From: a bacterium
GTDB taxonomy: Bacteria; RBG-13-61-14; DATKZS01
Assembly: GCA_963674965.2 (NCBI GenBank)
Contig: CAXXFL010000003.1
Span: forward strand, 492,837-556,836
Reading direction: 5' to 3'
DNA length: 64,000 bases
Shown here: positions 26,873 to 34,218 of the stretch, piece after piece
Layout of the letters: each line of letters begins with the position of its first letter
Numbering within the stretch: position 1 is the stretch's first letter
Notes under the pieces: generated by a model
What the model saw: only the letters and a program-made list of their open reading frames with translations
Database searches by the model: none
Told to the model about the DNA's origin: nothing
Made by a program: the position numbers and the translations under genes

Positions 26873-26967
26873 GCCAAAGTGAAGGCGGGACCGGTCCGAG
26901 CCGCCGGATTTTGCATTTTTTCTCGAACCGGCGGGGCCGGCGCCGGCAAGCATCTGAGGAGTCTGAA

Positions 26968-28380
26968 ATGGACGTACCCAATATCGAGATTAACGACAAG
27001 CAATACATGACCACCAATCAGGTGGTGCGCGGGGTGATCGAGCGGCTCGAGGCCGACAATACGGAGGACGCGGCCCACCTTTACAGCCACTGCCAGGAGG
27101 ACGTGGGTTTCATCCTCATGGCCCGGGCGCCCAAGGACCGGCCCATCCAGGCCCGCCTGGCCAAGATGTTCTACAAGGCCAAGGACTTCGAGAAGGCGGC
27201 CCTCGTGCTCGAGGCCAACAAGGAATATAAAAGGGCCGCCGAGCTTTACGAGCGCACGGACCAGTACGAGCACGCGGCCGAGATGTGGATGGGGGTGAAC
27301 GACGAGGATCGGGCCGCCCGCAACTACGAGAAGAACGGCTCCTGGCAGACGGCGGGCGAGCTTTACGTGAAGCTTAAAAACTTCGACCGGGCCGCCTATT
27401 GCTTCGAGAAGTCCCTTGACCACATCCAGGCGGCCAGGTACTACTACCAGATCAAGAAGTTCCAGAAGTCCATGGAAATCCTTCAGAAGGTGCGGGAGGA
27501 GGAGGAGGGTTTCCTCGAGGCGGCGGTGATGATCGGAAACATCCTGGCCATGAACGGCTACCTGGACATGGCCGCGGCCAAGTACCGCAACGTTACCAAG
27601 ACGGTCGAGATATCCCCCGGCACCCTGAGCGTCTACTACAACCTGGCCCAGCTTCTCGAGCGGAAGGGGGACGTTTTCGAGGCCACAAGCGTTTACGAGC
27701 AAGTTGTCTCCGTCGATATGAACTACCGCGACGCCGGGGCCCGGATCAAGGCGCTTAAAGGCAAAATCGCGGAGTCGGGGGCCAGGCCCGAGGACGTTCA
27801 GGTCGAGCTCGAGGAGATCGTCGAGGACCTCCAGGAGATCGAGGAGGACGAGATCACCCTGGTCCCGGGCGGCCAGTCCCTGATGGACTCGCCCAAGGCC
27901 CAGATCGTCAGCGTCATGGACGGCTTCGAGTTCCTAAAGAACACCTCCCTTTTCGACCGGCTCTCCCTTACCGAGATGAAAAGGATGTGGAACATATGCG
28001 AGACGGTCGATTTCCAGCCGGCCGAGATGATCATCGAGCAGGACCAGCCGGGCCAGGCCCTTTTCATCATCAAGAAGGGAGGGGTGGTGGTGCAACGGGT
28101 CAACCCCGGCTCGGTGACCGACCTGGTTTCCCTGCCCGCCGGCTCCCACGTGGGCGAGATGGCGCTGGTGGACGACGAGTCGCCCACCTCGGCCCGGGTC
28201 GTGGCCGGCGGCGACGGGGCCCAGGCCTTCAAGATCACGAGGGAGAAGTTCGAGGAACTGCTCGCCAGCGACGACAAGATAGCCATCAAGGTCTACCGGG
28301 TCTTCATCCGCACCCTTTGCGACCGGCTGCGCAAGACCACCGAGGACCTCTCATGCGCCCGGGCCATCCTGGAAAAGTGA
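26968..28380 (+). CDS. TPR/alpha-solenoid repeat protein with C-terminal cNMP-binding-like domain
   Basis: GAGGAG RBS before the ATG at 26968; repeats AA..[YF]E...; VYYNLAQLLE; IIEQDQPG.ALFII..G; VGEMALVD..PTSA. Confidence 0.82.
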   Translation: MDVPNIEINDKQYMTTNQVVRGVIERLEADNTEDAAHLYSHCQEDVGFILMARAPKDRPIQARLAKMFYKAKDFEKAALVLEANKEYKRAAELYERTDQYEHAAEMWMGVNDEDRAARNYEKNGSWQTAGELYVKLKNFDRAAYCFEKSLDHIQAARYYYQIKKFQKSMEILQKVREEEEGFLEAAVMIGNILAMNGYLDMAAAKYRNVTKTVEISPGTLSVYYNLAQLLERKGDVFEATSVYEQVVSVDMNYRDAGARIKALKGKIAESGARPEDVQVELEEIVEDLQEIEEDEITLVPGGQSLMDSPKAQIVSVMDGFEFLKNTSLFDRLSLTEMKRMWNICETVDFQPAEMIIEQDQPGQALFIIKKGGVVVQRVNPGSVTDLVSLPAGSHVGEMALVDDESPTSARVVAGGDGAQAFKITREKFEELLASDDKIAIKVYRVFIRTLCDRLRKTTEDLSCARAILEK

Positions 28381-28417
28381 CGGGCGCCGAGGCCGAACCT
28401 GGGCTATACTCGGTCCC

Positions 28418-28621
28418 ATGAACATGAAATGGACGGGATGGAGATGGATAGCCGGCGCGGCCGGCTTCGGACTGGGCTGGGCCTACGGGACCTTTATCGG
28501 CTGCCATGGCGGGTGAGGACTCCTCTCCAGCCCGCCGTTGGCGGGCGCGATCTTCGCCCTCATGAGCTACAGCCTGGCCGAGCTTCTAAGGGGCGATCCC
28601 CAGGCCCCGGGAAACGAGTAA
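28418..28621 (+). CDS. putative 67-aa membrane selenoprotein, DUF6132-like, with C-H-G-G-U motif (in-frame TGA at 28514-28516)
   Basis: MNMKWTGWRWIAGAAGFGLGWAYGTFIGCHGG-U-GLLSSPPLAGAIFALMSYSLAELLRGDPQAPGNE*. 29 of 34 codons after the TGA end in G/C. A hairpin follows the TGA. Confidence 0.72.
28530..28546 (+). promoter_or_regulatory. candidate bacterial SECIS element
   Basis: GCCCGCC-GTT-GGCGGGC: perfect 7-bp stem, loop begins GU, 20 nt after the TGA. Confidence 0.68.
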
Positions 28622-28820
28622 CGCATAGAAAAAGCCATTGGTTAGGCCGGAGATCACATGTTAACGGCGATGGGTTACCCGTTAAGGATATATATATATT
28701 GAACGGGTTAACGAGAGCCTTGACGCCTCTATCGGGCGCGAATTATACCTTGGAGAAACACGGCCTGACGTTATTTGTGTATGCACGCTGATCCCATGCC
28801 ACATTTGAGAAGGAGGATTG

Positions 28821-30384: not shown

Positions 30385-30771
30385 TCAATCCCGATCGCTC
30401 TCCATGTAATCGCGGCTGAACTTGGCGAAGGTTTCCCGGGCCTCGCTTTCCATGCGGTCGTTAAGCTCGCGGAAACGTTCTATCAGCGTCTCGGCCAGGG
30501 GCGTTAGCACCGTGCCTCCTCCCTTGGCGCCTCCCGGGCTTTTGACCAGGAGCTTTTTTCCCAGGCGCTTTTCCATGGACTTGAGACGGCCCCACAGGGC
30601 CCGGTAGCTCATATTGAGTTCCTTGGCCGCCTGGTTGATCGAGCCGCTCCGTTTTATGGCCTCGAGCATGGCCACCCGGCCCATGCCGATGACCAGCTCG
30701 CCCTCCTCGTTCTCGATCCAGACCTTGAGCCGGACCGAGAAGCTTCCATTATTCTTGCCGCCGGGGCACAT
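30385..30771 (-). CDS. ModE-family winged-helix regulator (DNA-binding domain only, no TOBE domains)
   Basis: KVWIE...IGMGR..MLEAI...GSINQAAKELNMSYRALWG.L..ME...GG..GGGT.LT. Confidence 0.88.
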   Translation of the reverse strand: MCPGGKNNGSFSVRLKVWIENEEGELVIGMGRVAMLEAIKRSGSINQAAKELNMSYRALWGRLKSMEKRLGKKLLVKSPGGAKGGGTVLTPLAETLIERFRELNDRMESEARETFAKFSRDYMESDRD

Positions 30772-30837: not shown

Positions 30838-33534
30838 TTACGCCTTGGCGATCTTAACCGCGCAGGCCTTGTACTCGGCCGTCTTCGAGACCGGGTCGAA
30901 GGCGGGGTTGGTCAGCCAGTTGGCGTTGCCCTCCCGGAAGTGGAAGTCCATCCATACCATGCCCTCCGGCATTTCCTTGCCGATCCTCGCCTTGACCTTT
31001 ACCTCGCCGCGGCGGGAGGCCACCTTTATACGGTCGCCGTCCTTGATGCCGTAGCGCTCGGCGTCGGCCCCTGAAATGTCGGCCACGCTCTCGCCCAGCA
31101 GCACGTTCATGCCGTCGCAGCGTCCCGTCTGGGTCCGGGTATGGTAATGGTACAATCTCCGCCCCGTGCTGAGAACGAGGGGGTATTCATCGTCCGGGAC
31201 CTCGGCCGGCGGCGTCCAGTCGATGGCGTGGAACTGGCCCAGGCCACAGGAGAACTGTCCGTCCTTGTGCAGGAAGCAGGTGCCGGGATGGTCCTCGTCC
31301 GGGCAGGGCCACTGGAGACCGTCGTTCTCGATGCGGGCGTACTTGATGCCCTTGTAGGCGGGCGCCAGCTCGGAGACCTCGTTGTCCCAGATTTCACGGG
31401 CGCTTTTGGATTCCCACTCGTGCCCGAGCCGCTTGGCGATCTCGCGGAAAATCCACCAGTTGGGCTTGGCCTGGCCGGGGGGGACCGAGGCGGTCCTTAC
31501 CCGGTTGACCCGGCGCTCGCTGTTGGTGAAAGTCCCGTCGTTCTCGCTCCAGGCCGCCGCCGGCAGGACCACGTCGGCGAAGCGGGTGGTCTCGGTGGGA
31601 AAGATGTCCTGGCAGACCAGGAACTCGGCCGACTCGAGGCAGTGCTCGACGTGGCGGATGTCCGGCTCCGAGTTGGCCGGGTTCTCGCCGAAGATGTAGA
31701 AGGCCTTGACGCTCCCGTCGATCAGGCCGTCGAACATGTCGGGCATCATGATGCCGTTCTTGTCGGACATGCCCTCGACGCCCCAGGCCTTCTCGAACTT
31801 CTCGCGGGCCGCGGCGTCGATCACCTTCTGGTAGCCGTGGTACACGTTGGGCAGGGCCCCCATGTCGCAGGCTCCCTGCACGTTGTTCTGTCCCCGCAGG
31901 GGGTTGACGCCTCCGCTCTCGACGCCCATGTTGCCAAGGAGCATCTGGAGGTTGGCCGTGCTCATGACGTTGTTCACGCCGCAGGTGTGCTCGGTGATGC
32001 CCAGGGTATAGCAAAGCATCACTGGCTTCACGCTGGCCAGCTTCCTGGCCACCTCGCGTATCTTATCGGGGGCTATGCCGCTTATGTCGGCCACGCGCTC
32101 GGGCGGATACTCGGCCACCTTTTTCTTCAAGTCCTCGAAGCCCACGGTGCAGGAATTGACGAATTCCTTGTCGTAGAGGTCCTCCTCGATGAGGACGTTC
32201 ATGATGCCGTTGAGGAAGGCAACGTCGCATCCCACTTTAATTTGAAGATGCATGCAGGCGTGTTCCGTGAGCTTGTGCGCGCGCGGATCGGCCACTATAA
32301 GCTGGGCGCCGTTCTTGACGGCGTTCTTGACGAAGGTCGCGGCCACTGGATGGGCCTCACACATATTGGAGCCGATGACGAAGAACATCTTGGCCTTGGG
32401 GAACTCGCGGAAAGAGTTGGTCATCGCGCCGGAACCGAAGCTATTCACCAGACCGGTGACGGTGGGAGCGTGTCATGTTCGTGCGCAGTGGTCAATGTTG
32501 TTGGTCTTGAATACCCCCCTGAACAGCTTCTGCATGTTATAGGAGTCCTCGTTGATGCTGCGGGCGCAGCTCACGCCGGCCACCGAGTCGGGGCCGTGCT
32601 TCTCGATGATCTCCTTAAACCTCGAGGCCACCAGGTCCAGGGCCTCGTCCCAGGAGGCCTCCCGGAACTCGCCGTTCTCCTTGATAAGGGGAGTGGTCAA
32701 GCGCTCGCCCGAGTAAATGAAGTCGAAGCCGAAGCGGCCCTTTACGCAGAGCCGGCCCTGGTTGGGCTCGGCGTTCTCCACCGCCGTGACCTTCACGACC
32801 TTGCCGCGGTTGACGTGCAGCCAAAGCTGGCAGCCCACGCCGCAATAAGGGCAGGTGGTCCTTATTTTCTGGAGGTCGAAGACGCGTCCCTTGCCCTTGG
32901 ACTTCTTCTCGGTCAGGGCGCCCGTGGGACAGGCCTGGACGCACTGGCCGCAGAACACGCAGTCGGACTCGGGATGGAGCATGGGCCGGTCGTTCATGGT
33001 CACGATCTTGGCCTCGAAGCCCCGGTTGCCGAAGCTGATGGCCCCGTTGACCTGGACCTCGTTGCAGGCCTGAACGCAACGGCCGCAGAGCACGCACTTC
33101 CTGGGGTCGCGGATGATGAAGGGGTTGTCCTCGTCGATGGGAAGCGGCTCGGCGTCGTGTTTGATCCTGACCGTTTCCACGCCGTACTCGTAGGCCAGCT
33201 TCTGGAGGTCGCAGTCGCCGTTGGCCTCGCACAGCATGCAGTCGTGCTCGCCGAAGGCGATCAGAAGCTCGAGGTTCATGCGCCGGACCTTGTGCACCTT
33301 CTCCGTGTCCGTCTCGACCGACATGCCGTCCGTGGCCGGGGTGGTGCAAGCGGGAAGGAGGTTCCTGGCCCCCTCGACCTCGACCATGCACATGCGGCAA
33401 GACCCCGTCGGGCTCACCCCCCGCATGTAACAAAGCGTGGGTATGCGGACCCCGTTTCGAGAGGCGACCTCCAAAATGGTGTCGCCCTCCTGGAAATCGT
33501 ACTCCACTCCGTTCAATTTGATTTTTTTACTCAT
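30838..33534 (-). CDS. fdhF: selenocysteine-containing formate dehydrogenase catalytic subunit (Mo/W-bisPGD) with NuoG-like Fe-S N-terminus, 898 aa
   Basis: ORFs 32473-33534 and 30838-32448 are in frame and joined by NNIDHCART-U(TGA 32473-32475)-HAPTVTGL..SFGSGAMTNS. Also 2Fe-2S, HxCxxC, 2x4Fe-4S, TTCPYCGVGC, PLRGQNNVQG and EYKACAV motifs. Confidence 0.95.
32445..32459 (-). promoter_or_regulatory. SECIS element of the fdh mRNA
   Basis: Minus strand TCACC-GGTCT-GGTGA hairpin with the loop 18 nt after TGA, the same register and GGUCU core as E. coli fdhF. Confidence 0.88.
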
Positions 33535-33612: not shown

Positions 33613-34218
33613 TCACTCCTTGTAATAAGCCTCGCCCTGGCAGTGCAGACAGGAACCTCCGTGCTTGGACGGATATGGCTCGCCGCAACCCGGACAAATG
33701 GCCACCGCCCCGAGCTTGTGCTTGGTCAAAAACTCGGGGGCCACCTTAACGCGTCTCGTCTTGAAAAGGGCCTGGCCCGCCTTCCTGATCTCGCCGTAAA
33801 GGGCCCGGTCGTCCTGCTCCTTTTTCGGTTTGAGCTTGAAAAACCAGGTCTTCACCGCCGGATAATCCTCGAGCCGAGAGGGATCGAGGCTGACCCGGAC
33901 GCCGGCCCCGCTCGCCTTGTCGTAAAGGGTAAGGGCGAAGCGGCCCGAGTCCATGACCCTAAGCCAGCCGTTACCGAGCGAGCAAAGCGTAAGAAGCTGG
34001 ACCGCGTCGGGAAGACAAGACCTCGTCTCGCAAACGGCGTCGAACAGAACGCCCTCCCCCAGGCTCGAGCGGGCCAACTCGACCATGGGGCCGCCTATCA
34101 TGAGGCCCGGCGCGGGAAAGCCGTGGAAGTCCCGCACCAACTCCATGTATTCCTCATAAGTAAAGGCCCGGCCCTTGTGGTCCCGGCACCAGAAATCGTC
34201 CCTTTTATCGTCCGTCAT
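33613..34218 (-). CDS. FmdE-family protein (formylmethanofuran dehydrogenase subunit E-like) with C-terminal Zn finger
   Basis: FHGFPAPG..IG, CETRSCLPDAVQLLT.CS.GNG and a C-terminal CPGCGE...CLHC. Confidence 0.88.
   Translation of the reverse strand: MTDDKRDDFWCRDHKGRAFTYEEYMELVRDFHGFPAPGLMIGGPMVELARSSLGEGVLFDAVCETRSCLPDAVQLLTLCSLGNGWLRVMDSGRFALTLYDKASGAGVRVSLDPSRLEDYPAVKTWFFKLKPKKEQDDRALYGEIRKAGQALFKTRRVKVAPEFLTKHKLGAVAICPGCGEPYPSKHGGSCLHCQGEAYYKE

Follow-up and report, generated by a model that had tools for sequence, protein, structure and literature searches.

Bacterial selenoprotein genes of the fdhF/fdhA type carry an in-frame UGA followed, about 20 nucleotides (nt) downstream, by a stem-loop whose apical loop opens with a G. 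The bSECISearch criterion for bacterial selenocysteine insertion sequence (SECIS) elements is built on the same arrangement: a stem-loop 16–37 nt after the UGA with a G at the start of the apical loop. Here we analysed a stretch of 64,000 nucleotides from a bacterium of the GTDB lineage RBG-13-61-14 (hereafter the window; assembly GCA_963674965.2, contig CAXXFL010000003.1, positions 492,837 to 556,836 of the forward strand), in which a small gene on the plus strand (28418..28621) shares these features with the formate dehydrogenase genes. It is highly probable that this is an unannotated selenoprotein gene, which would belong to a divergent branch of the DUF6132 family (PF19628) and possess its own SECIS. 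A preliminary description of the window, made from its letters alone, had first proposed this reading.

A 2026 review divides the prokaryotic selenoproteome into 119 families or subfamilies (PMC13188914, Table 1), and in that table, taken as a whole, neither DUF6132 nor PF19628 nor a C-x3-U motif appears. None of the NCBIfam and Pfam models named in the review matches the window protein. The main-text passages of deep-Sep (PMC12013277) name nine new families, none of which is a membrane mini-protein, and the passages of BSepDB (PMC13326102), together with one supplementary file, contain neither 'DUF6132' nor 'PF19628', the word 'membrane' being absent from them as well. Our literature search, which did not cover a groundwater metagenome-assembled genome (MAG) selenoprotein survey cited in PMC13188914, returned no paper with DUF6132 in a relevant sense and none with PF19628. 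The preliminary description had been aware of no report of this family as selenoproteins, and we likewise found no paper or catalogue naming DUF6132 as such.

The reading frame starts with an ATG at 28418, with a second ATG at 28424 as an alternative start, and runs through 31 further sense codons to a TGA at 28514..28516 (codon 33), then through 34 sense codons to a TAA at 28619–28621. With the TGA read as selenocysteine (Sec), the gene comprises 67 codons plus the TAA, whereas the list of open reading frames (ORFs) of the window contains only the 32-codon stub 28418..28516 at this place. The split into 32 and 34 codons, both hydrophobic stretches and the C-H-G-G-U motif were all recovered as the preliminary description had given them, and so was its host-like codon usage past the TGA, where 29 of 34 codons end in G or C versus 25 of 32 before it. 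The 67-residue product opens with a basic, Trp-rich N-terminus and a hydrophobic stretch with G16-x3-G20; the segment G28-C29-H-G-G-U33 and a turn of Ser and Pro lead on to the second hydrophobic stretch, and the C-terminal tail is short and polar. In an AlphaFold2 model computed from an 81-row alignment, helix 1 spans residues 4–27 (28427..28498, plus strand) and carries G16-x3-G20 and Tyr23, whereas helix 2 spans residues 39–57 (28532..28588, plus strand), with the C-x3-U turn between them. G16, G20, Y23 and G28 are conserved, and helix 2, which is encoded 3' of the TGA and overlaps the hairpin described below, aligns with helix 2 of relatives bearing Cys in place of Sec (Cys forms). Very probably, the window holds a real gene for a 67-residue protein with two predicted membrane helices and a short joining turn.

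The in-frame TGA is shared by relatives of the gene. In what follows, G000 is the genome of the window, and other G- and L-numbers denote compared genomes and loci. A protein search of 61 genomes, in which stops were read through and counted, showed that all four other genomes of the same family have homologues with a single in-frame TGA; G003 holds two tandem TGA-bearing copies, and G007, from the same order, holds one TGA homologue. When a profile of seven Sec forms (A1) was run against 13 genomes of the phylum, eight TGA-bearing loci were found in seven genomes, including G011, which belongs to another family of the class. These loci read G-C-x3-TGA (in G011, T-C-x4-TGA), and in each the frame goes on through a second hydrophobic helix to a genuine stop. 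In metagenomes, the DNA pattern GGN TGY N9 TGA N12 AAY CCN TGG NTN NCN GG gave 28 matches in 26 loci, 22 of them family genes and six chance matches without protein context. After removal of duplicates, 26 non-redundant Sec-form genes remained, eight from the seven genomes of this small phylum and 18 from metagenomes. All 26 carry the TGA at this column and a hairpin at the same place after it, which answers the preliminary description's call for other genomes with both. A further related-locus search from a 4-row alignment recovered only four known MAG contigs, one of its two peptide patterns ending in Cys and being unable to match a TGA.

This recurrence bears directly on whether the TGA might be a sequencing or assembly error, or the mark of a decaying pseudogene. 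Nothing beyond the single in-frame stop codon speaks for such an origin, which we regard as almost inconceivable: the same TGA stands in 26 non-redundant sequences from separate assemblies, and two Logan contigs, from two runs of one sample that is possibly the source of the window DNA, show 0 differences over 28350–28700, so that the assembly error considered in the preliminary description finds no trace in their letters. As a separate observation, tandem pairs of Sec-form paralogues, about 200–300 bases apart, are present in L076 (1965–2372, equal to G003 contig C73) and L070 (667–944), and each paralogue has its own TGA and hairpin. In addition, G011 gives a weak second profile match (C11, E 0.006) without a stop.

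Profile A1 was also searched against 1.84 billion representative proteins, yielding 339 matches at E ≤ 1e-3. The best 150 of these 339 comprise one long repetitive protein (P0002), six stubs, and otherwise proteins of 52–108 residues, and most of the non-stub proteins among them read GC-x3-C or GC-x2-G-x-C, then ITSNPW. Four of the stubs end just before the U column (P0023, P0040, P0120 and P0144) and two start just after it (P0052 and P0092), whereas no full-length Sec form occurs among the best 150. Therefore, gene callers split Sec-form genes, which would be systematically lost in this way, and the six stubs are evidently miscalled halves of them. The 81-row alignment (A4) consists of the seven Sec forms of A1 and 74 Cys forms, with P0002, the six stubs and 69 further matches excluded. 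Its only invariant columns are that of Cys29 (TGC, 28502..28504, plus strand), the first residue of the C-x3-U motif, and the U column, which is Cys in all 74 Cys-form rows. The proposal that the TGA falls on the second conserved Cys of the family is therefore upheld. The Cys form P0003 shares 74% identity over 47 residues with the Sec form of L073, Cys standing opposite U.

The relation of these proteins to DUF6132 was assessed from the Cys forms as well as from the window protein. Among 14 Cys forms scanned, 11 match PF19628 at E ≤ 0.01, eight of these above the gathering score of 23.2 bits; the two nearest Cys forms, P0003 and P0004, give no PF19628 match, and the window protein itself does not reach the gathering score. 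Aligned by hhalign against nine Pfam-matched Cys forms (the eight above the cut-off and P0010, 0.2 bits below it), the Sec profile gave, over 56 columns, a probability of 99.2% and an E-value of 7.6e-20, and U came to lie against the second Cys; in the window protein, residues 4–59 are homologous to the DUF6132 Cys forms. A search of 301 genomes with PF19628 matched 15 places in 14 genomes. Two of these places hold a single TGA, namely the Sec genes of G011, whose 21.6 bits fall short of the cut-off, and of G267, from an unrelated lineage, whose 26.9 bits exceed it. Neither G000 nor any of the other four genomes in its family was matched in that search. Since the window protein stays below the Pfam model, its gene is, as judged from these alignments, a Sec-bearing offshoot of the DUF6132 superfamily, divergent enough to lie outside Pfam's own threshold.

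The Cys forms and the window protein are alike in several respects. DUF6132 Cys forms are about 55–108 residues long, with the same two-helix layout and with G-x3-G and a Tyr in helix 1; like the Sec forms, they have G-C-x(3,4)-C at the turn (C/U in the Sec forms) and a Gly-rich helix 2. The window protein retains the two helices and G-C-x3-U but differs from the Cys forms in having Sec for the second Cys and SPP (SSPP) in place of [ST]NPW. NPW is kept in most other Sec forms (24 of 25 counted), G007 reading NLW and G011 retaining only PW (GPW). After NPW, the Sec forms read [VF][TAS]G, whose codons make up the 3' arm of the hairpin, while the Cys forms mostly read [ILM]S[TG] (by eye), and the Cys-form genes are without the hairpin of the Sec forms. 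The DUF6132 motif given in the preliminary description proved right for these Cys relatives, although the Pfam model itself does not match the window protein.

The candidate SECIS occupies 28530..28546 on the plus strand. A 7-bp stem pairs GCCCGCC (28530–28536) with GGCGGGC (28540–28546) around the loop GUU (28537–28539), and the loop begins 20 nt after the UGA. The perfect stem, the GUU loop and the 20-nt distance, set in the preliminary description against 18 nt in the formate dehydrogenase gene some 4 kb away, all stood up to re-examination. For comparative analysis, we used a gap-free alignment of 60 nt from the TGA in the 26 sequences (A3). RNAalifold predicted a single helix, columns 18–23 with 27–32; with the additional pair 17–33, 93.4% of 182 cells are paired, and the six core pairs are formed in 154 of 156 cases. 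The first loop base, G24, is invariant, and U26 is present in 25 of the 26 sequences; a stem-loop 3' of the UGA with a G opening its apical loop, as bSECISearch seeks, is thus found throughout the alignment. Sliding the 3' arm by 1–3 columns reduced pairing to 19–56%, versus the 93.4% observed. Four hairpin pairs show changes on both sides, and in none of 500 shuffles did pairing, double-change counts or covariation score come up to the values observed. The window gene has CG where a UA pair and a GC pair stand in relatives, each pair being altered on both sides, while the peptide NPW-V-T-G becomes SPP-L-A-G; in G007, CG is replaced by UA.

Further comparisons point the same way. Four-fold degenerate sites within the stem are frozen, with Pro as CCG in 25 of 25 cases, Thr as ACG in 18 of 19 (the exception being the compensated G007) and Val as GTC in 12 of 13; outside the stem, Thr is ACC in 22 of 25 cases elsewhere in the gene, and the third positions of Gly and Ala have 1.3–1.8 bits of entropy. 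All six pairs are formed in 17 of 18 metagenome family genes and in seven of eight genome-derived genes, the latter having been found by protein search, while the six chance pattern matches form three to five of the six pairs and none of them all six (by eye). At the equivalent place in 11 Cys-form DUF6132 genes (L084, L085 and L093 being left out), one to four of the six pairs are possible, versus six of six when the G011 Sec form is treated alike. On this comparative evidence, the hairpin behaves as an RNA element.

A second Sec gene lies about 4 kb away in the same window. The fdhA gene (30838–33534, minus strand) encodes the alpha subunit of formate dehydrogenase, a molybdopterin oxidoreductase with Fe4S4 and ferredoxin domains, and is split by an in-frame TGA at 32473–32475 in the context C-A-R-T-U-H. 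Its hairpin, UCACC-GGUCU-GGUGA, has a loop starting 18 nt after the UGA, compared with 20 nt in the small gene. The genome contains selA, selB, selC and selD, all above curated cut-offs, as the preliminary description had asked to be checked: selA (558 bits), selB (378 bits) and tRNA-Sec (69.5 bits) are adjacent, head to tail, on contig C4:210035–213487, and selD (361 bits; C1:1052858–1053775) has an in-frame TGA of its own in the context S-G-U-A-A-K, SelD being evidently itself a selenoprotein. Across the 13 genomes of the phylum, selB is found above cut-off in eight, which include all seven genomes with the TGA gene; G012 has selB without a match to the family, and none of the five genomes lacking such a selB matches it. 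G267 also has selB. Because kin are not independent, this co-occurrence is to be taken as consistency and not as a statistical test.

Stop-codon read-through stimulated by downstream structure exists in bacteria, and the UGA might accordingly be read without Sec, for instance by a near-cognate tRNA inserting Trp or Cys while the hairpin slows termination. Compatible as it is with such known cases, this explanation is in our judgement highly improbable. It is at odds with the phylum-wide pattern just given, with a codon that replaces Cys as in a classical Sec/Cys pair, and with the hairpin, whose place and invariant loop G match those of the genome's own fdhA element.

Several observations weigh against the gene as a selenoprotein gene with its own SECIS. 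Folded as a single 67-nt sequence, the hairpin region is no more stable than shuffled controls (z = -0.99, with 32 of 200 shuffles folding equally well or better), so the folding check suggested in the preliminary description confirmed that the hairpin is there and not that it exceeds chance; it is the comparison among relatives alone that makes it significant. A single core pair is mismatched in G001 (C.A) and in L075 (U.U), two of the 26 sequences. Moreover, 18 of the 26 were fetched by a DNA pattern that forces pairs 18–32 and 19–31 and one side of the other four, and kin among the sequences are not independent. The stem of only 6–7 bp, the 3-nt loop (GUU or GGU) and the lack of a bulged U make the element smaller than the classical fdhF element and different from that of the window fdhA. 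At E ≤ 10, no Rfam SECIS model (SECIS_1 to SECIS_5) matches the small gene (28514–28560), whereas the fdhA element alone gives a match, to SECIS_3 at 32420–32478, itself below threshold (29.9 bits versus a gathering score of 63). The window protein matches no Pfam or NCBIfam model even at E ≤ 10, and the family link therefore rests on the profile search and hhalign. At least two of the best 150 of the 339 profile matches, P0128 and P0149, each lack one of the two Cys (by eye); both lie outside A4. Finally, the AlphaFold2 model of the product reaches only moderate confidence (mean pLDDT 67.7, pTM 0.35).

Some of these points would suit a TGA that is a true stop, ending a 32-residue single-helix peptide; the conserved sequence and hairpin beyond it would then be a second, independent mini-ORF or else stay untranslated and act as a regulatory or terminator-like element. 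TGA is an ordinary stop in the window, where it ends 15 of 42 ORFs of at least 300 residues; gene callers report the halves separately, as in the six stubs; and the hairpin by itself is not significant. Nevertheless, we hold this alternative to be very unlikely. Residue for residue, the sequence encoded beyond the TGA can be aligned to helix 2 of the Cys forms, and in the family genes the frame stays open for about 25–47 codons. Pairwise differences beyond the hairpin are highest at codon position 3 (0.637 versus 0.570 and 0.438), with the same trend upstream of the TGA. There is no T-run, and a terminator scan called none after the small gene. The position of the TGA coincides with that of an invariant Cys, and every genome of the phylum that has the gene also has selB.

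Taking the gene as a Sec-form gene, we propose the following scheme for its expression. The UGA at codon 33 would be decoded as Sec, and the hairpin, 16–32 nt downstream with the invariant G opening its loop, would act as a bacterial SECIS that recruits SelB with Sec-tRNA(Sec), as in fdhA. When selenium or SelB is missing, translation would stop after 32 residues. In the full-length product, Sec would replace the second of the two invariant DUF6132 cysteines, so that a C-x3-U motif stands where helix 1 ends, and the Cys/Sec pair might cycle at the hairpin turn between a selenenylsulfide and the reduced thiol/selenol, with the thioredoxin system as its putative redox partner. The N- and C-terminal ends of most Cys forms among the best 150 of the 339 matches are rich in Lys and Arg (by eye); by the positive-inside rule, both ends would therefore be cytoplasmic, and the Cys/Sec turn would face away from the cytoplasm, at the outer face.

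A link to thioredoxin is suggested by the neighbourhoods of relatives. In the subgroup with the motif GCHSTU, a thioredoxin gene lies directly upstream on the same strand in four of four loci with enough upstream DNA (L064, L069, L077 and L083). In G267 (L093; G267:C5, minus strand, about 1132–1674), a DUF6132 domain with C-x4-U continues in frame into a thioredoxin-fold domain at the C-terminus (PF00085, 29.3 bits) that has no CxxC motif (by eye), and the fusion gene sits between a rubrerythrin gene and a Redoxin/AhpC (peroxiredoxin-type) gene. Of 13 Cys-form loci drawn from a domain-wide sample, three (L086, L089 and L090) have a thioredoxin gene immediately upstream, and L095 has a thioredoxin-like gene beside rubrerythrin, desulfoferrodoxin and AhpC genes, the same ORF layout recurring in L097 of the same genus. 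Pyridine-nucleotide disulfide oxidoreductases are encoded near L084, L085 and L089, and a rhodanese directly upstream in L088. These thioredoxin neighbours and the one fusion make it the best-backed suggestion, though a tentative one, that the protein serves as a thioredoxin-linked membrane Cys/Sec redox centre. Two points tell against this function: the neighbours in the window are a TPR/cyclic-nucleotide-binding gene and a MaoC-type dehydratase gene, with no thioredoxin, and a turn facing the periplasm would be out of direct reach of cytoplasmic thioredoxin.

Alternatively, Sec might be kept for another job, the Cys/Sec pair binding or handing over metals, metalloids or species of sulfur or selenium in a MerT-like or persulfide-carrier-like manner. 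Some relatives do lie beside genes for rhodanese and DUF302 (L088) or an ArsR-type regulator (L089), and L084 stands beside a metallo-beta-lactamase-fold gene and S-adenosylmethionine-dependent methyltransferase genes (TehB-like in G007, L006). Membrane selenoproteins for metals are likewise on record in Table 1 of the review, for example a putative mercuric transport protein with C/SxxU (PMC13188914). A role of this kind seems a serious competitor, though somewhat less likely than the thioredoxin link: thioredoxin-fold neighbours or fusions are the commonest association seen, no Pfam or NCBIfam homology to MerT or metal-binding families was detected, and nothing in the window points to metals.

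The redox function can be drawn out into a still more speculative picture, which as a whole we consider unlikely to hold in every part. Sec-DUF6132 would then be a minimal two-helix membrane redox relay with C-x3-U at its outer tip, perhaps assembled as a GxxxG-packed oligomer, that is reduced by cytoplasmic thioredoxin and passes reducing power or chalcogen across or along the membrane, with the SECIS dictating the peptide NPW-[VF]-[TA]-G.

Upstream of the small gene, a gene with TPR repeats and a cyclic-nucleotide-binding domain (26911..28380, plus strand) ends 37 bases before it. A promoter scan found no promoter-like site on the plus strand between the two genes, which may be co-transcribed. 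Downstream, a 0.7-kb gap is followed on the other strand by a gene for a MaoC-type dehydratase, one for a small helix-turn-helix protein (30385–30771, minus strand), fdhA and an FmdE-like gene (33613–34218, minus strand), the last and the helix-turn-helix gene flanking fdhA. G002 (L005) and L063 likewise have the TPR/cyclic-nucleotide-binding gene as their next gene upstream, in the same orientation; in L076 (G003) an epimerase gene stands in between, and in L068 only TPR repeats are found. Six relatives, L003 (G001), L005 (G002), L063, L068, L076 (G003) and L082, have a CysG/Met8-like siroheme synthase gene (NAD_binding_7 plus sirohaem synthase dimerisation domain) directly downstream in convergent orientation, whereas G000 has none there. 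Both kinds of neighbour may be plain synteny among kin, with no pointer to function.

Some features of the flanking DNA are recorded here as side observations. No Shine-Dalgarno-like sequence precedes the ATG in G000 (28394–28417), and a TATACT hexamer ends 9 nt upstream of it (by eye). At comparable upstream places in homologues (L002 and L004), G003b has TGCTATCCT and G004 has TGCTATTAT, in extended -10 style. Such TATACT-type hexamers may constitute a promoter of the gene's own with a short or absent leader, although the consensus scan called no promoter there. Within the 0.7-kb non-coding gap after the gene, positions 28666–28719 of the window form a 27-nt imperfect palindrome (70% complementary) that is centred on a (TA)6 run and includes GGTTACCCGTTAA as well as ACGGGTTAAC; a hairpin or the binding site of a regulator may lie here.

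If our reading is true, one family is added to the bacterial selenoproteome. The replacement of Cys by Sec would mark the second DUF6132 cysteine as the reactive residue and give a first mechanistic handle on a widespread family of unknown function, with thioredoxin as candidate partner. Furthermore, RNA signal and protein motif share the same 17 bases. In G000, the constraint on the RNA appears to have overridden the amino-acid motif, SPPLAG standing with a fully compensated stem, which amounts to a natural experiment.

In comparison with known systems, the proposed relay would resemble a mini-CcdA of about 60 residues. It shares with membrane thiol relays of the CcdA/DsbD type a Cys pair within the membrane and, in relatives, an adjacent thioredoxin gene, a likeness in manner of working; unlike them, it has two helices versus six or more, there is no homology, and the passage of electrons across the membrane is only conjectural here. 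With the membrane selenoproteins of the review's Table 1 (PMC13188914), the window protein has no sequence relation by Pfam or NCBIfam, but it is like them in that Sec replaces the Cys of a Cys motif and that the selenoprotein is predicted from Sec/Cys pairs.

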